DNA from: an uncultured Chloroflexia bacterium | Lineage (GTDB): Bacteria > Chloroflexota > Dehalococcoidia > UBA2979 | Direction: 5' to 3' | NCBI GenBank assembly: GCA_963728205.1 | Contig: CAVSIV010000002.1 | Coordinates: 96,001 to 160,000 of the forward strand | Length of the DNA: 64,000 nucleotides | Part shown: positions 39,773-47,725 of the stretch, piece by piece | Numbering within the stretch: position 1 is the stretch's first letter | Layout: every line of letters starts with the position of its first letter | Program-made: the position numbers and the translations under genes | Notes under the pieces: generated by a model | What the model was told of the DNA's origin: nothing | Seen by the model: only the letters and a program-made list of their open reading frames with translations | Databases searched by the model: none

Positions 39773-40980
39773 ATGTCACGCGCCCCGTGGGTGCGCGCGA
39801 GCGCGCTGTCCCTCGCCCTGCTCACCGCGGCGACGCTCGCCACCGCCTGTCACGGCGCGCGCGGCGCGACGCCCGATGCGCCGGCCGACACGCGCGCCAT
39901 CACCGTGGCGGCCGGCAATCCGATCCGCATCGGCATCTCCTCCATCCTGGACGGCAGCCTCCGCGCGCTCGGCATCCCGCTCGCGCGGGCCGCCGAGCTC
40001 GGCGGGCGCGGCGTGACCGTCGACGGCCACCCGCTCGACTTCGAGCGCTCCGACGACGCCTGCACCGCGGACGGCGGCGTGGCCGCCGCCCGCACGCTGA
40101 TCGCGAGCGGCGTCGTCGCCGTGATCGGGCCGGTCTGCTCGGCGTCGGTGCAGGCCGCGCAGCCCATCTACGCGGCCGCCGGCGTTCCCGTGCTGTCGCC
40201 GGCCTCGACCGCGATCGGCGACACGGTGCCCGTAAGCGGCACGGCGTACGCCGGGTTCTTCCGCCTCGCCTACGACGACGCGATCCAGGCGCAGGCGCTT
40301 GCGCGCTTCGCGACCGAGCGCCTGCACGCGAGCACGGCCTACATCGTCGCGTTCGACGATTTGTTCGGCGCGCAGTACCGCGACGCCTTCGCGGCTGCGT
40401 ACGCCGGGCGCGTCGTGGGCGCCGCGTCGTTCCCGGCCGGCGCCACTGCGTTCCCCTCGGCGGTCCGCGGATCCAGGACTCGCATGCGCAGGTGGTGCTG
40501 TTCTTCGGCTACTCCGCCGAGGCCGCCCCGTTCGCCCGCGCGCTTCAGGCCGCCGGGGTGCGCGTCCCGCTGCTCACGCCCGACACCGTGCACGACTCCC
40601 AGTTCCCGGCGCAGGCGGGCAGCGCGGCGGAGGGCGTCTACGTCGCCCTCCCCGACCCCACTCCGTCCGGCGCCGCCTACGAGCGTTTCAGCGCCGCCTA
40701 CGTTGCCGCGTACGGCGCCTCCGCCGCGGCCGCCCCGTTCACCCCGCAGGCGTTCGACGCCACCGCCGTCCTGGCCGACGCGCTGCGACGCGTCGCGCGG
40801 CCCGCCGGCTCCGCCCTCACGATCGACCTCACCGCGCTGCGCGCCGCGGTCGCGCGGACCGATCTCACGGGCGCGTCGGGGCGGGTGCGCTTCGATGCGC
40901 TGGGCGACAACGTCGGAACGGCGACGCCCGTGCGCATCCTCGTGGTGCGGGAAAGCACGTTCGTCGACACGGGGTTCTAG
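39773..40980 (+). CDS. Branched-chain amino acid ABC substrate-binding lipoprotein; frameshift near 40466
   Basis: Lipobox ATAC, PIRIG, DDAC, VIGPVCS, FFRLAYDD. Continues in another frame as RIQDSHAQVVLFFGY...AFDA...GASGRVRFDALGD. Confidence 0.82.
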
Positions 40981-41077: not shown

Positions 41078-41698
41078 ATGCCGAACGACACCGAGCGCAC
41101 CGACGGAGCCACGCCCGAGATCCGCTTCACGGACGACGCGGCGGAGAAGCTTGCCGAGGTGATCGGGAACCACCCGAATCCGGTCGCCGGCCTGCGGCTC
41201 CAGATCCTCGGCCGTGCCGAGGGCCAGTTCCAGCACGTCCTCAGCCTCGTCGAGGACGGCGCGCAGATCGAAGACGACATCGTCGTCGAGACCGACGACG
41301 GTATCCGTGTCTTCGTCGAGCGCATGAACGCGAAGTACCTCGACGGCGTAGAGATCAACTACGCCGACAAGGGGCCGGGTCGGACCGGCCTCGAGTTCTC
41401 GAACCCCAACCCGCTCTGGATGGACGAGCGCGAAGAGCTGGTTCAGCGCATCTTCGACGAGCAGGTCAACCCCGCGATTGCCGCACACGGCGGCATCGTG
41501 AACCTGCTCGCGGTCGACGGCGACACCGCCTACGTCCAGTTTGGCGGCGGCTGCCAGGGCTGCGGCATGGTCAACGTCACGCTCCAGCAGGGCGTCGAGG
41601 TGGCCGTCAAGGAGCTGGTGCCGAGCATCGAGCACATCGTCGACGCCACGGACCACCAGTCGGGCACGAACCCCTACTACCAGCCCGCGAAGAAGTGA
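41078..41698 (+). CDS. nfuA: NfuA-like Fe-S carrier (degenerate A-type domain plus NifU C-terminal domain)
   Basis: IRFTDDAA...INY...F.NPN, then VNPAIAAHGG...GGGCQGCG...TL.QGVE...DATDH.SG.NPYY. Confidence 0.88.
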   Translation: MPNDTERTDGATPEIRFTDDAAEKLAEVIGNHPNPVAGLRLQILGRAEGQFQHVLSLVEDGAQIEDDIVVETDDGIRVFVERMNAKYLDGVEINYADKGPGRTGLEFSNPNPLWMDEREELVQRIFDEQVNPAIAAHGGIVNLLAVDGDTAYVQFGGGCQGCGMVNVTLQQGVEVAVKELVPSIEHIVDATDHQSGTNPYYQPAKK

Positions 41699-43167
41699 TG
41701 CCGCCGGGCATGCCCGGCCGCGCGCCAGGCGCGCCGCTCCGCGTCCTGCTCGTCTCCACCTACGAGATGGGCCACCAGCCACTGGGCCTCGCGGCCCCGG
41801 CCGCCGCGCTGCGCGGAGCCGGCCACGACGTCCGGACCCTGGATCTCGCCGTCGAGTCCCCGGAGCTCGAGCGCTTCGACGACGTCGACCTCGTCGCGAT
41901 CTCAATCCCGATGCACACGGCGGCGCGGCTCGGGATCGACCTCGCCGGCCGCCTGCGCCGCCTGCGGCCGGCGCTGCGCATCGCGTTCTACGGCCTCTAC
42001 GCGACGCCGCTCGCCGACCGCCTCGCGCGCGACGGCCTCGCCGACGCCGTGATCGGCGGCGAGTACGAGCCCGGACTCCTCGCGCTCGCCGCGCGCCTCG
42101 CCGGCGCGCCGGCCGACCCGCTCGCGCTCGCGGGCGTCGGCCCGCAGCCCGCGTTCGCGCGGCAGGCGTACCCCGTCCCGGATCGCACGGGATTGCCGCC
42201 GCTCGACGCCTACGCACGCCTCCAGCTCGGCGACGAGCAGCGGCTCGCGGGCTACGTCGAGACGACCCGCGGCTGCGCCCACCACTGCACGCACTGCCCG
42301 CTGACGCCCGTCTACGGTGGGCGCCTGCGCGTCGTGCAGGCCGAGACGGTGCTCGCGGACATCGATCAGCTCGTCGCGGCCGGCGCGCGCCACATCACCT
42401 TCGGCGACCCTGACTTCTTTAACGCCCTGCCCCATGCGCGCGCCGTCGTCGACGCCATGCGCGTCCGCCACCCGGACCTCACGTTCGACGCGACCATCAA
42501 GGTCGAGCACCTGCTCGAGCACGCCGACGCCCTCGCCTGGCTGCGCGGGCGGGGCTGTCTCTTCGTCACCTCCGCGTTCGAGTCGACGAACGACGCCACG
42601 CTTCGCCTGCTCGACAAGGGCCACACGCGCGACGACATGGATCGCGCGGTGGCGGCGGCCGAGGCCGCCGGGCTGCCCGTGCGGCCGACGTGGGTGGCGT
42701 TCACGCCGTGGACGGCACCGGCGGACCTCCTGGACATGCTCGCGTTCATCGAGTCGCGCGGGCTCGTCGAGCACGTGCAGCCGGTGCAGTACGGCATCCG
42801 GCTGCTGCTGCCGCCCGGCTCGCCGCTCGTCGACCGGCTGCGCGACGAGGGCCGGCTCGGCCCGTTCGACGACGACGCCCTCACCTATACGTGGGCGAGC
42901 GCCGACCCGCGCATGGACGCGCTGCAGCGCGAGCTGGCCGGGATCGTGGAGTCGGCGGCGTGCGCGAGCTGCGACGCGGAGCCCGCCGTGGAGACGTTCC
43001 GCCGCGTGAAGCAGGCGACCGTCGCGGCGCTCGCGGGCGACGCGGCGCCGGTGGCGGTAGCCGCACAGCCCCGGCGGGTGGTGCCGGGGCTGACCGAGTC
43101 GTGGTTCTGCTGAGCGGAGCCGACGGGGGCGCAGTTGGCGCCCCTCGACCGCGCGCTCGGGCTGTGA
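41698..43167 (+). CDS. CUAEP-tail radical SAM selenoprotein (ArsL-like; Sec at TGA 43111-43113)
   Basis: B12-binding-like N-terminus, TRGCAHHCTHC motif. Read-through gives ..ESWFC-U-AEPTGAQLAPLDRALGL*. TGATG coupling to nfuA. Confidence 0.88.
43121..43147 (+). promoter_or_regulatory. Putative bacterial SECIS element
   Basis: GGGGCGC-AGTTG-GCGCCCC stem-loop starting after a 12-nt spacer from the TGA, extendable by CGA/TCG. Confidence 0.7.
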
Positions 43168-43183
43168 CCCCGGCCGCCTCGCG

Positions 43184-43579
43184 CTAGACGACCGTCACCG
43201 GGATCCGCTGGGTCTCCTCCTGGAGTTCCTCGGCGACGCTTCCGTCGATCAGGTCGCGGAACGCGCTGTGCTCATGCGACGCGATCACGATGCGATCGAC
43301 GTGCTCGTCGCGCGCGACCTCGAGGATCCCGCGCACCGGGTCGCCCGCGAGCCGCACCTCCTCCTGGACGTGCAGACCCGGGTCGAGGCGCTCACGGACC
43401 TTCCGCAGCCGCTTCTCGAGCACCGAGTGCGTCTCCTTCGCGTGCTGTGACACCTCGGGCAGTTCGCCCACGCTGACGAGGACGAGCTCGAAATCGCGCT
43501 CGCCGCGGCCCAATTCGAGGGCCTTCGGCAGCGCGTGCTCGGAAAACTCCGTCTCGTCGATCGGAACGAGGATCTTCAC
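43184..43579 (-). CDS. Universal stress protein
   Basis: KILVPIDETEFSEHAL...GDPVRGIL...DRIVIASH...GSVAE...PVTVV. Confidence 0.85.
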   Translation of the reverse strand: MKILVPIDETEFSEHALPKALELGRGERDFELVLVSVGELPEVSQHAKETHSVLEKRLRKVRERLDPGLHVQEEVRLAGDPVRGILEVARDEHVDRIVIASHEHSAFRDLIDGSVAEELQEETQRIPVTVV

Positions 43580-43758
43580 CGCGTACTCCCTCCAGGGGGG
43601 CGTGGATGGCCCTCCTTCGAGTCTACGAGGGCCGCGCGACCATCCCGGCGCAACGGTCGCCGTCCGTCGACAGCGGGCGCACCAACTCAGCGGCGCCGGA
43701 GAGGGCGCCGATCTGGTGGGCGGCGCGAGCCGCCCCCTCCCTTTCCCCGCCTCTGCCG

Positions 43759-44994
43759 TCAGTCGATGTCGAACGTCAGACGGCCGTGCGCCGCGCGCAG
43801 CGCCGCTTCGACCGCTTCCGGCGTCTCCCCGCGGGCGAAGATGAACCCCAGGTACTCGCTGCCCTCGGGCAGCGGCACGACCTCGCTGCCGGGGTGAATC
43901 GAAATCGTGACCGATTCGATCAGCGGCACGCGCTCCGCCTCCGCGATGCCATGCACGGCGCGCAGCGTGCCTCCCCGCGGGATCGGGATCATCATCACAC
44001 CGGCTGCCGCCGACTGCCGCTCGTAGGACGGCACCTCTGCGCCGATCGCGTGGCGCAGGAGCAACTCCTCGAGCGACATGCCCGTGCCGAAGCTCAGCGT
44101 CCGCGAGCACAGGCCACCGATCGACCGCGCCGCGATGTCGACCGGGTAGACGCCGTCGTCGTTGATCCGCAGCTCCGCGTGCACCGGCCCGTCGAAGAGC
44201 GCCAGCGCGGCACACGCCTGCTCGGTGGCCGCGATCGCCGCCTTCTGCCGTGCCTCGGGCAGCCGCGACGGCGTCACGTAGATCGTCTCTTCGAAGTACG
44301 GGCCCTCCAGCGGGTCGGGCTTGTCGAAGACCGCGAGCACCCGCAGCCTTCCATGATCGAGCAGCCCCTCCAGCGAGACCTCGATGCCGGGGATGTAGCC
44401 CTCCACGAGCAGGCGGTCCACGAGCTCGTGGCCGCACTCGTCGCGCGCGTCGGGTGACTCGAGAATGCGTCGCACGCGCCCGAAAGCCGCGACGAATGCG
44501 TCGGCGTCGTCGGCGCGGATCACGCCCTTGCTCGCGGAAAGCGCGAGCGGCTTCAGCACGACGGGGTACGTCAGGTCCGCGGCGGCCGCGCGGGGATCGT
44601 CGAGCAGCGACACCGCGCGGAACGCGGGCGACGCGATGCCGGCGGCGGCCAGCCGCTCGCGCAGCAGCAGCTTGTTCCGCGTCGCCTCCACGGCCGCGAC
44701 GGGGTTGTAGGGCAGCTCGAGCCGGCGCGCCGCGCGCGCTGCCACCAGCGCACCGCCGTCATCCACCGCCACGATCGTGTCGAGCGGGTGCCGCCCCGCG
44801 AACGCCTCGATCTCGCCGGCGCCGATGTCGGGCTCGGTGAAGTTCAGCCCGAGCGTCCGCCCCTCGGACAGCGATTCCAGCGGACTGCTCGCGTCGGAGC
44901 CGACGACCACCTCGACGCCGAGCTTCGCCGCAGCCTCCATGAAGTCGGGCGCGCGGTAGGAGCGGGTGGGGATCAGGAGCATCACTCGCGGCAC
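43759..44994 (-). CDS. ATP-grasp domain protein (amino acid ligase-like)
   Basis: RNKLLLR, YPVVLKP..SASKGVIR, LVEGYIPGIEVSLE, HAELR, DIAARSIGG. Confidence 0.9.
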   Translation of the reverse strand: MPRVMLLIPTRSYRAPDFMEAAAKLGVEVVVGSDASSPLESLSEGRTLGLNFTEPDIGAGEIEAFAGRHPLDTIVAVDDGGALVAARAARRLELPYNPVAAVEATRNKLLLRERLAAAGIASPAFRAVSLLDDPRAAAADLTYPVVLKPLALSASKGVIRADDADAFVAAFGRVRRILESPDARDECGHELVDRLLVEGYIPGIEVSLEGLLDHGRLRVLAVFDKPDPLEGPYFEETIYVTPSRLPEARQKAAIAATEQACAALALFDGPVHAELRINDDGVYPVDIAARSIGGLCSRTLSFGTGMSLEELLLRHAIGAEVPSYERQSAAAGVMMIPIPRGGTLRAVHGIAEAERVPLIESVTISIHPGSEVVPLPEGSEYLGFIFARGETPEAVEAALRAAHGRLTFDID

Positions 44995-45029
44995 AGCGCA
45001 CCTCCCGGTCGGGTTCGGGGCGTGAACGC

Positions 45030-45099
45030 AAAGCAGCCGGCCCGGGGGCCGGCTGCGATCGTATGCGCATCCGCGCGCCGGCCGCCTCGCGGCCGGCGC
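45030..45099 (-). terminator. Two GC hairpins between the iscA-like and ATP-grasp genes (possible terminator or processing site)
   Basis: Stems at 45033-45056 and 45075-45099. Only a short T run follows on the minus strand. Confidence 0.4.
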
Positions 45100-45108
45100 A
45101 AAGCGTGG

Positions 45109-45444
45109 CTAGTGGCCGCCGCAGCCGCAGCTGCCGCCGCCGAGCGCCGCCGCGTTCGGCGCCTCGATGGCGAAGCCGGACTGCATCACGTCGTCCACGT
45201 AGTCGATCGACGCGCCCTCGAGCACCGGCGCGGACGCGGAGTCGACGATGAAGGTCAGCGTGCCGACCCGGATCACGGAGTCCTGGTCCGACGCGCTGTC
45301 GAGGCCCATGCCGAACTGCGGCCCGCTGCACGCGCACCCGCCCGACTGGGCGAAGATGCGAATCGCGTGGTCCGGGGTCTCCTCGCGGTCGGCAAGGAGC
45401 GCGCTCAGGCGCTGCTGGGCCAGGTCGGTCACGGTCAGGTTCAT
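45109..45444 (-). CDS. HesB/IscA A-type Fe-S carrier
   Basis: GGCACSG, IDYVDD..SGF...PNA, C-terminal CGCG. Confidence 0.9.
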   Translation of the reverse strand: MNLTVTDLAQQRLSALLADREETPDHAIRIFAQSGGCACSGPQFGMGLDSASDQDSVIRVGTLTFIVDSASAPVLEGASIDYVDDVMQSGFAIEAPNAAALGGGSCGCGGH

Positions 45445-45556: not shown

Positions 45557-47725
45557 TCACGCGCCCGCGATCACCGTCAGCAGCTCTTCGCCGAACCGGC
45601 CGACGCGCGCCTCCCCGAGCCCCCATACCTCGAGCAGCGCCGCGTGCGAGGCCGGCCGCGCCGCGACGAGCTCGCGCATCGTGCGATCCGAGAACAGCGT
45701 GTACGCCGGCACGCCTTCCGCTCGCGCGCGCTCCGAGCGCCACCTCCGCAACGCCTCGAACAGCGGGTCGCCGCGCACCGCCTCGATGCCGGGATCCCGC
45801 GAGCCTTCGCCGCCGCCCGCGCTCGCGCTCGACCGGCGCGTCGGCGCAGCTGCCGCCGGCGGCGGCGGCGGCGCCTCCGGGTGCGCCGCGCTCCACTCCG
45901 CGACCACCGCGAGCAGCTCGCGCCCGAACCAGTCGGCGCGCTTCTCGCGGATGCCCCAGACCGTGAGCAGGGCGTCGCGGTCCCGCGGCCGCCGGATCGC
46001 GACCTCGCGCGCCGTCCGCAGCTCGAACACGCGCGACGGGTCGAGCCCGCTGCGCCGCGCGATCTGCTCGCGCACCTCGAGGATCGCGTCGTACAGCTCG
46101 CGGGGGTACTCGATGCGCACGGCCGTGCCCTCGCCCCGGCAGTTGTCGCAGCGGTCGCACCGGTCCGCCGGCGTCTCGCCGAAGTAGCGCAGGATCACCG
46201 CGCGCCGGCAGGTGTCGGTCTCCGCGTACTCCGTCATCTCGCGCAGCCGGCCCTCGGCGTACGCGCGGTGCCGGGTGATCGACGACACGTCGATCGGCGC
46301 GGCCGGGTCGAGCGTCGTCAGCCGCAGCTCCGACGCCTCGAGCAGCCCGCTGTCGCGCAGGGCAGCCACCGTGATCGCGAAGCGGTCGATGTCGTCGTCG
46401 CCGGCGCCGGGAGGTAGCCGCCCGCCGTGCTGCGCGGCGAGCACGACCCAGTGCCGCCACGTGCGGCGCACGGTCGCCTCGTCCGGGTGCGCCTCCTCGA
46501 TCATGCGCTGTGCCAGCCGCCGGTCGCGCTCCGCGTAGAGCAGCACGCACTCGGCCGGGTCGCCGTCGCGGCCGGCGCGCCCGGCCTCCTGGTAGTACGA
46601 CTCGAGGCGGGCGGGCATGTTGTGGTGGATGACATAACGGACATCGGGCTTGTCCACGCCCATGCCGAACGCCGTGGTCGCGACGATTACGGGCAGCTCC
46701 CCGAGCGTGAACCGGCGCTGCACGCTCGAGCGCTCGTTGCGCGGCAGCCCGGCGTGGTAGGCGGCCGCGCCGACGCCGGCCTCGCGCAGCGCCTCGGCGA
46801 CCTCCTCGACGCGCCGCCGCGACCGCGCGTAGACGATGCCGGCCTGCCCGGGGTGGGCGAGCGCGTACTCGACGATCCAGCGCAGCCGCTCCTCGGGCCG
46901 GCTGATCGGCCGCACGACGAAGCTGAGGTTCGGTCGGTCGACGGTGGTGATCACCTCCACCGCGCGGCCGGTAAGGCCGAGCCGTTCGAGGATGTCGCGC
47001 CGCACCTGCGGGTTCGCCGTCGCGGTCAGCGCCAGCGTGCGCGGGGAGCCGAGGCGCTCCCGCACCGAGCCCAGCTGCAGGTAGTCGGGCCGGAAGTTGT
47101 GCCCCCACTCCGAGATGCAGTGCGCCTCGTCGACGGCGAGCAGGTTGACGCCGGCGCGCCGCAGCCCCTCCGTGAAACGCTGGTTCGCGAACCGCTCGGG
47201 CGCGACGTACAGCAGCGAGGTGCGCCCCGCGATGAAGTCCGCGTACCGCCGGTTCTGCTCTTCGCGCCCGAGGTTCGAGTTGATGAACGTCGCTGCGACG
47301 CCGGCTGCCTGCAGCGACTCCACCTGGTCCTGCATCAGCGCGATCAGCGGGGACACGACGACCGTGCGGCCGACCTCGAGCGCCGGCAGCACGTAGCAGA
47401 GGCTCTTGCCGCTGCCGGTGGGCATCACCGCCAGGACGTCGCCGGCGGCGAGCCGCGCGAGCACGTCGGCCTGGCCGTCGCGGAAGTCGGGGTACCCGAA
47501 GGTCTCGCGCAACCGCTGACGATAGCGGTACAGCTCGGCGGGCAGGCGGACGCGCGGAGCGCCGGGAGCGGCGGCCGGCCGGGGAAGGGGGTGTGGCTGC
47601 GGCGCAGCCGCGAGCGCCTCCGCCGGGTGCGGCGGCGCGTCGCCCGCCGGCCGTCCGCAGGCGGGACAAAACGCCGCCGCGGGCGGGACGGCATCGCCGC
47701 ATCCGGGGCACTGAATCGAGATGAT
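45557..47725 (-). CDS. recQ: RecQ helicase with two HRDC domains and a probable N-terminal zinc ribbon (start uncertain)
   Basis: MPTGSGKS, VDEAHCISEWGHNFRP, AFGMGVDK, QEAGRAGRDG, CRR..CDRCDNC. Frame stays open 71 codons upstream of TTG 47512 and contains CPGC..CPAC. Confidence 0.9.
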   Translation of the reverse strand: MISIQCPGCGDAVPPAAAFCPACGRPAGDAPPHPAEALAAAPQPHPLPRPAAAPGAPRVRLPAELYRYRQRLRETFGYPDFRDGQADVLARLAAGDVLAVMPTGSGKSLCYVLPALEVGRTVVVSPLIALMQDQVESLQAAGVAATFINSNLGREEQNRRYADFIAGRTSLLYVAPERFANQRFTEGLRRAGVNLLAVDEAHCISEWGHNFRPDYLQLGSVRERLGSPRTLALTATANPQVRRDILERLGLTGRAVEVITTVDRPNLSFVVRPISRPEERLRWIVEYALAHPGQAGIVYARSRRRVEEVAEALREAGVGAAAYHAGLPRNERSSVQRRFTLGELPVIVATTAFGMGVDKPDVRYVIHHNMPARLESYYQEAGRAGRDGDPAECVLLYAERDRRLAQRMIEEAHPDEATVRRTWRHWVVLAAQHGGRLPPGAGDDDIDRFAITVAALRDSGLLEASELRLTTLDPAAPIDVSSITRHRAYAEGRLREMTEYAETDTCRRAVILRYFGETPADRCDRCDNCRGEGTAVRIEYPRELYDAILEVREQIARRSGLDPSRVFELRTAREVAIRRPRDRDALLTVWGIREKRADWFGRELLAVVAEWSAAHPEAPPPPPAAAAPTRRSSASAGGGEGSRDPGIEAVRGDPLFEALRRWRSERARAEGVPAYTLFSDRTMRELVAARPASHAALLEVWGLGEARVGRFGEELLTVIAGA

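Follow-up and report, generated by a model that had tools for sequence, protein, structure and literature searches.

A 64,000-nucleotide stretch of contig CAVSIV010000002.1 from an uncultured Chloroflexia bacterium (positions 96,001 to 160,000; hereafter the window) contains a gene for a radical S-adenosylmethionine (SAM) enzyme, accompanied by genes for an Fe-S carrier and a stand-alone ATP-grasp enzyme, and analysis of this locus defines a conserved three-part module. Its components are an Fe-S or iron carrier, an ATP-grasp enzyme of the L-amino-acid ligase (LAL) type and a radical SAM enzyme resembling ArsL, the flexible C-terminal arm of which bears either a Cys-selenocysteine (Cys-Sec) or a Cys-Cys pair. 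The carrier slot is filled by NfuA in the window, and by a single-domain Nfu or by YggX in other lineages. The radical SAM gene is a true selenoprotein gene of family NF040546, and this reading of the locus, as a three-part module and as encoding a selenoprotein, is very probably correct. The module points to an uncharacterised, widespread small-molecule pathway across many bacterial phyla, and no description of it was found in the literature searched. The original prediction, made from the letters of the window, had called the pathway undescribed; this holds for the linkage to the ligase, which is new, but not for the family, which has already been curated as NF040546 and is mentioned in a 2022 preprint, which notes its rare CU motif and calls it uncharacterised. 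That preprint aside, no further literature on the CUAEP/CCAEP-tail family was found. What is added here for NF040546 is its conserved ligase and Nfu/YggX partners and its selenocysteine insertion sequence (SECIS) element.

Membership of the radical SAM protein in NF040546, the NCBIfam family of CUAEP/CCAEP-tail radical SAM (seleno)proteins, is clear. Under translation table 11 the open reading frame (ORF) spans 41698-43113 and encodes 471 aa, while read-through of its terminal TGA to a second TGA at 43165-43167 gives 489 aa; the two versions score 565.6 and 585.3 bits, respectively, against a family cut-off of 500, and the match spans profile positions 1-467 of 468. The protein shares with the family the CX3CX2C core and the WFC(U/C)AEP tail, and no difference was found in the protein itself. 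The ArsL model NF040542, by contrast, gives 286 bits against a cut-off of 450. Nevertheless, the end-to-end similarity to the ArsL core that had been proposed is real: positions 1-414 of the 423 in that model are covered, and residues 14-425 are 35% identical over 423 aa (E = 1e-86) to the RCCLKC-tail protein of a Priestia plasmid. The two-domain core and a Cys-rich C-terminal end are common to both families, and RCCLKC enzymes are likewise paired with a ligase. Differences lie in about 65 extra residues, in a tail reading C-U/C-C AEP rather than RCCLKC, and in the surroundings of the gene, where Fe-S carrier neighbours take the place of ars genes; neither the RCCLKC (CCxxC) tail nor the arsM/ars context of the ArsL family is present. 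The protein is hence a member of NF040546, and a sister of ArsL that falls outside the ArsL family. The Pfam Radical_SAM domain itself scores 46.6 bits.

A search for related loci matched 599 stretches, 529 of them encoding relatives; the neighbour counts given below for related loci come from the best 80, which were drawn from at least eight differently named lineages and many of which are short contigs. The tail could be aligned in the window and 78 of these loci, the other two being cut before it. In these 79 sequences the CX3CX2C cysteines C193, C197 and C200 are invariant, and the conserved residues outside the cluster motif are C287 (89%), C471 and U/C472. All the ArsL-like motifs previously quoted are in the translation (STYEMGHQP, TRGCAHHCTHC, DFFNA, PVQYGIRLLLPPGSPL, together with CASC and FCUAEP). 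The extra CASC is therefore genuine in the window protein but is not a feature of the family, since both of its cysteines are kept in only 5 of 79 members, and a role for it as a second metal site was dropped on these grounds. In the alignment, AACASC of the window protein falls at the position of the RCCLKC tail, with the conserved Cys-Sec pair about 50 residues further on. Nor does the protein end at CUAEP, as had been supposed: 14 further residues (TGAQLAPLDRALGL) follow, and these are conserved among relatives.

The predicted structure is confident except towards the C-terminal end, an AlphaFold2 model from a 67-sequence alignment having a mean predicted local distance difference test (pLDDT) score of 92.7, with 74 and 66 for the last two blocks of ten residues. 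The nearest solved folds retrieved by Foldseek were AprD4, OxsB, TsrM, MgmA and MiaB, all class-B-like radical SAM folds. A sequence search of the PDB returned weak matches to the core only, and no ArsL structure was among the matches to the radical SAM protein from either search.

Decoding of the in-frame TGA as selenocysteine is supported by conservation, by RNA structure and by the gene content of the genome, as the original prediction had anticipated. The codon lies within FC-TGA-AEPT at residues 470-476. In the tail alignment, its column holds TGA in 52 of 79 sequences, a Cys codon in 26 and TGA-TGA in one, and the downstream pattern AEPTxxQ(L/F) is kept in TGA-type and Cys-type relatives alike. 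A SECIS-type hairpin begins 12 nt past the UGA, or 15 nt from the first base of that codon. Across the 52 sequences with TGA these columns form a 7-bp hairpin with the loop AGUUN, 89.9% of cells being paired; the covariation score is 0.454, compared with 0.171 for shuffled alignments (0 of 500 reaching 0.454) and no more than 0.150 for controls in which the partner was slid, and 59 cells are altered on both sides of the stem. The corresponding columns in the 26 Cys-codon loci have 53.8% of cells paired. The genome also encodes SelA (408.5 bits), SelB (309.9 bits), SelD (363.6 bits, with one TGA in its own gene) and a tRNA-SeC (73.8 bits, anticodon TCA). One blemish is a single frameshift in the assembly that breaks selA into two reading frames (G000:C2:333050-333100, outside the window; loci L001 and L002). 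This is taken to be an assembly error because selD and the radical SAM gene retain their TGA codons; and, since a substrate-binding protein gene upstream of the module has the same kind of frameshift, both are probably indels of an indel-prone assembly. Separately, one Planctomycetota relative has two consecutive TGA codons (L102:5972-5977), giving WF-U-U-AEPT in place of the Cys-Sec or Cys-Cys pair.

The ATP-grasp protein combines the Pfam domains ATPgrasp_N (41.6 bits), ATP-grasp_4 (101.3 bits) and LAL_C2 (64.8 bits), all above their cut-offs, an architecture in common with the L-amino acid ligases BL00235, BacD/YwfE and DdaF. Its nearest solved relative is BL00235 (3VOT, E = 7.6e-38), with BacD at about 1e-15; matches to the NCBIfam BacD and DdaF models are weak, and every curated equivalog score is far under its cut-off. 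Public names for the protein extend to 'ATP-grasp domain-containing protein' or 'biotin carboxylase', and the protein atlas offered nothing on it beyond the LAL domain set. Unlike BL00235, BacD/YwfE and DdaF, the window-type ligase is linked to Nfu or YggX and not to an antibiotic cluster.

Conserved linkage between this ligase and the radical SAM enzyme had been set beforehand as a test on which the proposed pathway could fall, and the pairing proved to be strong. An orthologue of the ligase (42-80% identity) is found in 34 of the 80 related loci. Among 401 sampled genomes of the window's phylum, 107 have the radical SAM family; both enzymes occur in 104, the radical SAM enzyme alone in three, the ligase alone in 27 and neither in 267, although kin among the counted genomes are not independent and Fisher values overstate the pairing. 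One of the 'ligase only' genomes (G222) in fact holds a radical SAM fragment cut by the end of a contig. Where both enzymes are present, the genes are no more than 5 kb apart in 65 genomes, far apart on one contig in seven and on different contigs in 32; in 44 of the close pairs the two genes share a strand and in 21 they do not, and most gaps among the 65 are 30-116 nt. In a second phylum, the same seven of 181 genomes have both enzymes and the other 174 have neither. Furthermore, in four of five genomes of other phyla with an unlinked radical SAM locus, a 48-56% identical ligase is present elsewhere. The 401-genome counts, and the SelD counts given below, include a few genomes flagged as unpublished, on which no conclusion depends. 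The arrangement of the two genes is far beyond chance: the pairing is seen in two phyla and persists where the genes are no longer linked, so that the two enzymes form a functional pair that extends across phyla.

Some longer proteins (P0123-P0126, P0129 and P0130) carry the ligase fused to other domains, namely a sulfotransferase domain in two clusters, an assimilatory sulfite reductase in one sequence and partial CUAEP-type radical SAM domains in three singletons, whose domains are incomplete. Some of these fused forms may be gene-calling artefacts, and the radical SAM-ligase fusions are given little weight.

The third component, the carrier, is more variable in identity. The window's version has the Pfam domains Fe-S_biosyn and NifU and retains the CxxC of the Nfu domain; it scores 105.2 bits against the NCBIfam NfuA model TIGR03341 (cut-off 269) and 81 bits against a second NfuA model, again under the cut-off, and on its two-domain architecture and CxxC it can be called NfuA-like despite these scores. 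No other Nfu-domain gene was found in the genome by tblastn, and YggX was not found there either. Of the 80 related loci, 32 have Nfu next to the radical SAM or the ATP-grasp gene, 11 have DUF169 and nine have YggX. The same pattern is seen from the side of the ligase, in 126 ligase loci of the first phylum, a set that excludes the window's own genome (G000), three genomes that are unpublished, one split gene and any second copies. Within 1.5 kb of the ligase, Nfu is found in 55, YggX in 27, IscA in three and any of the three in 82; in 12 more, YggX is placed beyond a radical SAM gene that adjoins the ligase. Operons of the second phylum have the order radical SAM-Nfu-DUF169-ligase (in one genome, L261) or radical SAM-Nfu-ligase. 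Thus an Nfu or YggX gene usually travels with the radical SAM and ligase genes, and the functional tie to NfuA that had been suggested is upheld in both sets of loci and in the second phylum. When the genes for the two enzymes are apart, Nfu tends to accompany that for the ligase (L117, L126-L128, L260) and DUF169 that for the radical SAM enzyme.

In Escherichia coli, NfuA services radical SAM enzymes such as LipA and MiaB. The likeness here is that the gene for a two-domain NfuA-type carrier immediately precedes a radical SAM gene and overlaps its start. The window enzyme differs in that no conserved Cys triad occupies a position known for a sacrificial auxiliary cluster, conservation outside the cluster motif being limited to C287 and the pair in the tail; a further departure from the E. 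coli system is that in many genomes Nfu accompanies the ligase and not the radical SAM enzyme. The DUF169 (COG2043) gene, in most of the 11 loci that have one, stands directly after the radical SAM gene (median gap 60 nt); these loci are mostly from Planctomycetota, and nothing on the function of DUF169 was found among the literature matches listed.

The closest characterised enzyme is ArsL, and the RCCLKC-tail enzymes offer a parallel to the pairing in the window. In a tblastn search of plasmid records, an RCCLKC-tail enzyme was found on 36 plasmids, 35 of which have an LAL-type ligase 0.3-3.5 kb away (Bacillus 20, Priestia 7, Pantoea 6, Alicyclobacillus 1, Klebsiella 1); the one without a nearby ligase is a Pseudomonas record annotated arsQ-arsL-arsM. 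The ligases on this side have the domains ATP-grasp_4 and LAL_C2. In Pantoea, ArsR is followed by radical SAM-hypothetical-ATP-grasp-MFS (major facilitator superfamily)-ArsM-GTPase-aquaporin, with the genes from radical SAM to ArsM in an operon. The pairing of RCCLKC-tail enzyme and ligase on these plasmids suggests an arsenic-containing dipeptide as the product; no literature linking arsinothricin with an ATP-grasp enzyme was found.

The window and its genome have little of this arsenic context. A tblastn search with ars proteins from annotated plasmid loci found no arsM, arsR or arsenic exporter gene, nor any other ars gene, in the window, as had been noted from the sequence alone. In the genome, which is 89% complete, no match to Acr3, ArsB, ArsR or ArsQ was found at E 1e-8; elsewhere in it there are generic methyltransferase matches, none of ArsM grade, and one ArsC-like gene. 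None of the recurrent annotated neighbour clusters of the 80 related loci is arsenic-related. Arsenic is therefore unlikely to be the acceptor. A GCN5-related N-acetyltransferase (GNAT) gene outside the window (G000:C4:158151-158600), about 2 kb from selD, encodes a protein 39% identical to the arsinothricin-resistance acetyltransferase ArsN1.

Selenium supplied via SelD was considered as another possible substrate. SelD is present in 298 of the 401 genomes, with a mild enrichment among those that have the radical SAM enzyme (97 of 107, compared with 201 of 294 without it). SelD is missing from six genomes whose enzyme is of the Cys-Cys type, and three of these genomes are 99% complete, so selenium via SelD is not required and its role as an obligatory substrate was rejected; it may still be used where SelD is present.

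The explanation preferred here, held tentatively and with close to even confidence, is that the conserved three-part module couples ArsL-like SAM chemistry at the Cys-Sec arm to ATP-dependent ligation. According to two preprints, ArsL cleaves SAM reductively to methylthioadenosine and an aminocarboxypropyl radical, and its vicinal cysteines, in the CCxxC tail, bind As(III); it is described in one of them as the sole canonical radical SAM enzyme so far known to form this radical. By analogy, the [4Fe-4S] cluster of the window enzyme would cleave SAM at the C-gamma-S bond, giving methylthioadenosine and a 3-amino-3-carboxypropyl radical, and the radical would couple to a soft acceptor held on the C471-U472 pair, with C287 possibly serving as a third ligand. 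The product would be a non-proteinogenic amino acid of the 2-aminobutyrate type, which the ATP-grasp ligase would then join to another amino acid; alternatively, the ligase might supply a peptide substrate to the radical SAM enzyme. Nfu would keep the oxygen-sensitive cluster loaded. From the ArsL precedent it may be supposed, with somewhat less than even confidence, that aminocarboxypropyl transfer comes first and ligation second. Literature searches combining 3-amino-3-carboxypropyl, radical SAM and ATP-grasp found nothing relevant, and nothing relevant to ArsL homologues, the aminocarboxypropyl radical and selenium was among the matches listed.

A number of observations weigh against this explanation. 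Of 131 ligase-bearing genomes, 26-27 have no radical SAM enzyme to go with the ligase; five of these (94-98% complete) gave no radical SAM match even at E 1e-5. Among 25 ligase loci of genomes in which no radical SAM enzyme was scored, 23 have Nfu (20) or YggX (3) alongside. The ligase thus has a role that does not need the radical SAM product, and may act first; as it occurs without its partner and the reverse is rare, either step may precede the other. Conserved Cys/Sec residues outside the cluster motif number only two or three, including the pair itself, as against the three tail cysteines of ArsL. The window ligase is 24% identical to that of the arsenic islands (E = 6e-16) and closer to BL00235, such that, judged from these alignments, the CUAEP and RCCLKC ligase pairings may be independent recruitments rather than one inherited cassette. 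The frameshift in selA, if real rather than an assembly error, would block TGA decoding in this organism. Finally, the computed results do not separate aminocarboxypropyl-radical from 5'-deoxyadenosyl chemistry.

In an alternative view, Nfu or YggX and the ligase would be the core unit, making a small peptide, such as a low-molecular-weight thiol, for Fe-S or iron handling, and the radical SAM selenoprotein would be an optional downstream modifier of that peptide whose Cys-Sec arm acts as an S/Se relay or redox arm. This alternative is doubtful, but deserves serious weight: the distribution of the radical SAM enzyme is nearly a subset of that of the ligase (three genomes with the former alone, as against 26-27 with the latter), the ligase keeps an Nfu or YggX neighbour in nearly all the loci without the radical SAM enzyme, Nfu remains with it where the radical SAM gene is unlinked, the window's NfuA-like gene being the only one of its kind in the genome fits a housekeeping role, and the sulfotransferase and sulfite reductase fusions hint at sulfur chemistry. 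However, an Nfu neighbour would be expected just as well if it supplied the radical SAM cluster, or if it had been left behind when the radical SAM gene was lost; in the sister family, a ligase of this kind is accompanied by ars genes and not by Nfu; and the fused forms are few and open to the doubt expressed above. At the other extreme, it can hardly be the case that there is no pathway, with the TGA a plain stop and the neighbours adjacent by chance. Such a view could appeal to the complete 471-aa ORF obtained with table 11, to the frameshift in selA and to the fact that a universal stress protein (USP), the substrate-binding protein and, for the most part, IscA are unconserved neighbours, but it conflicts with the conservation past the TGA, the Sec/Cys alternation, the covarying hairpin and co-occurrence of the two enzymes in 104 of 107 genomes in one phylum and seven of seven in another; the second single-base frameshift, in the substrate-binding protein gene, fits an indel-prone assembly and not a dead selA.

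Two further alternatives concern the chemistry itself. In mammalian thioredoxin reductase, a C-terminal Gly-Cys-Sec-Gly sequence forms a redox arm, and a residue that is Sec in some proteins and Cys in their relatives is usually a redox-active nucleophile. The window enzyme could accordingly be a canonical radical SAM enzyme acting by 5'-deoxyadenosyl chemistry on a peptide or protein, with a Cys-Sec selenenylsulfide shuttling electrons or a hydrogen atom, which is distinctly unlikely. The vicinal Cys-Sec pair on a flexible C-terminal extension, replaced by Cys-Cys in other species, resembles that of thioredoxin reductase, the tail lies on an extension modelled with lower confidence, and the nearest solved folds are all of 5'-deoxyadenosyl or methyl-transfer enzymes. 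These folds cannot separate the chemistries, given that no ArsL structure was among the fold or sequence matches; moreover, the ArsL family contains the closest sequence relatives by far, the tail replaces the substrate-binding tail of ArsL at the same end of the protein, and, unlike in thioredoxin reductase, an enzyme of another class, no flavin or dithiol centre is predicted that would reduce the Cys-Sec pair. It is a little less probable still that the module is an arsinothricin-like organoarsenical or antimonial pathway, in which the Cys-Sec arm would bind As(III) or Sb(III), the ligase would make a peptide of an arsenic-containing amino acid and resistance or methylation genes would lie elsewhere in the genome. 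The closeness to ArsL, with its reported As(III)-binding vicinal cysteines, the sister loci joining both enzyme types with ArsM, ArsR, aquaporin and ArsN1, and the ArsN1-like acetyltransferase of the genome are all consistent with this. It is opposed by the ArsL model score far below the cut-off, by the lack of an ArsM-grade, Acr3, ArsB, ArsR or ArsQ match in the window or genome and of any arsenic-related recurrent neighbour cluster, and by the occurrence of the module in roughly one in four genomes sampled from the phylum, tied to housekeeping Nfu, which is unlike a sporadic resistance-island trait.

Whichever chemistry applies, the closest sister family of ArsL, itself uncharacterised, is far more widespread than ArsL. 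Its selenoprotein nature, its tie to a ligase and to Fe-S or iron carriers, and the like pairing on the ArsL side together turn an isolated annotation into a testable two-enzyme pathway. Cultured carriers appear in public records for both sides, Thermomicrobium and Thermogemmatispora for the CUAEP/CCAEP type and Priestia and Pantoea for the RCCLKC type. These results also suggest that carbon-heteroatom bond formation by ArsL-type chemistry is not confined to arsenic. A more specific proposal, which must be considered unlikely as a whole, is that the module makes a novel and widespread small peptide whose key residue arises by radical aminocarboxypropyl transfer onto a S, Se or metal atom on the Cys-Sec arm, the atom or cluster being provided via Nfu or YggX. 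If true, ArsL-type chemistry would have a second use, one that does not involve arsenic, in Fe-S or metal homeostasis in many phyla, and the plasmid-borne RCCLKC enzymes of Bacillus, Priestia and Pantoea would make arsenic dipeptides, not free arsinothricin. On a megaplasmid of Thermomicrobium roseum DSM 5159 (NC_011961.1; L129:5509-9855), an annotated CUAEP/CCAEP-tail gene is flanked by those for a pyridoxal-phosphate (PLP)-dependent aminotransferase and an MFS transporter.

Positions of the features discussed, in window coordinates unless a locus or contig is named
Feature	Position	Strand	Basis or remark
NfuA-like two-domain Fe-S carrier gene	41078..41698	+	Degenerate A-type domain and Nfu domain with CQGC
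CUAEP-tail radical SAM selenoprotein gene, 489 aa	41698..43167	+	NF040546 member; B12-binding-like N-terminal domain
In-frame TGA decoded as selenocysteine, U472	43111..43113	+	Sec/Cys alternation, conservation downstream, Sec machinery in genome
Bacterial SECIS-type hairpin, 7-bp stem, loop AGUUG	43126..43144	+	Covariation in TGA-bearing relatives
USP-like gene	43184..43582	-	Weak NCBIfam UspF and KdpD-like matches; not a conserved part
Stand-alone ATP-grasp enzyme gene, L-amino-acid-ligase architecture	43759..44994	-	Pfam domain set; conserved radical SAM partner
Terminator-like hairpin with T-rich tail, between iscA and the ATP-grasp gene	45033..45056	-	Pattern scan, consensus match only
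IscA/HesB-type A-type Fe-S carrier gene	45109..45444	-	TIGR00049, 75.5 bits (cut-off 58.8)
Branched-chain-amino-acid-type substrate-binding protein gene, frameshifted	39773..40980	+	PRK15404 match, E 1.2e-12
RecQ helicase gene, next after iscA	45557-47512	-	Syntenic in closest relatives only
DUF169 genes	L099:2098-2787; L261:485-1141; G000:C6:108013-108675		The last in the window's genome, away from the locus
RCCLKC-tail radical SAM and LAL-type ATP-grasp genes in arsenic islands	L130:1483-6275; L131:2444-8275; L132:7001-11744

The layout of genes described in the original prediction was recovered in full. The NfuA-like gene stops at a TGA (41696-41698) whose last base is also the first of the radical SAM start codon ATG (41698), forming TGATG, and the USP, ATP-grasp and IscA/HesB genes on the minus strand converge on the radical SAM gene. 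Not all of these neighbours belong to the module, as the USP and IscA had been taken to do. No homologue of the USP was found in any of the 80 related loci, and it was dropped as a part. IscA adjoins the module in four of the 80, three of them the closest kin, and is separated from it in the window by the terminator-like hairpin; it was therefore dropped as a general part and kept as a lineage-specific neighbour. The substrate-binding protein gene does lie upstream on the same strand, but in a frameshifted state, and it was likewise dropped, being in none of the recurrent neighbour clusters from the 80 loci. It consists of two overlapping ORFs with a single frame switch near 40460-40490, a change that could mark either a pseudogene or an assembly indel. 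A formyltransferase-like gene seen with YggX (five of the 80 related loci and 36 of the 126 ligase loci) reflects lineage synteny and was not counted as a part. The RecQ gene, also dropped as a part, is a neighbour in close kin only, with one weak partial match elsewhere among the 80 loci.

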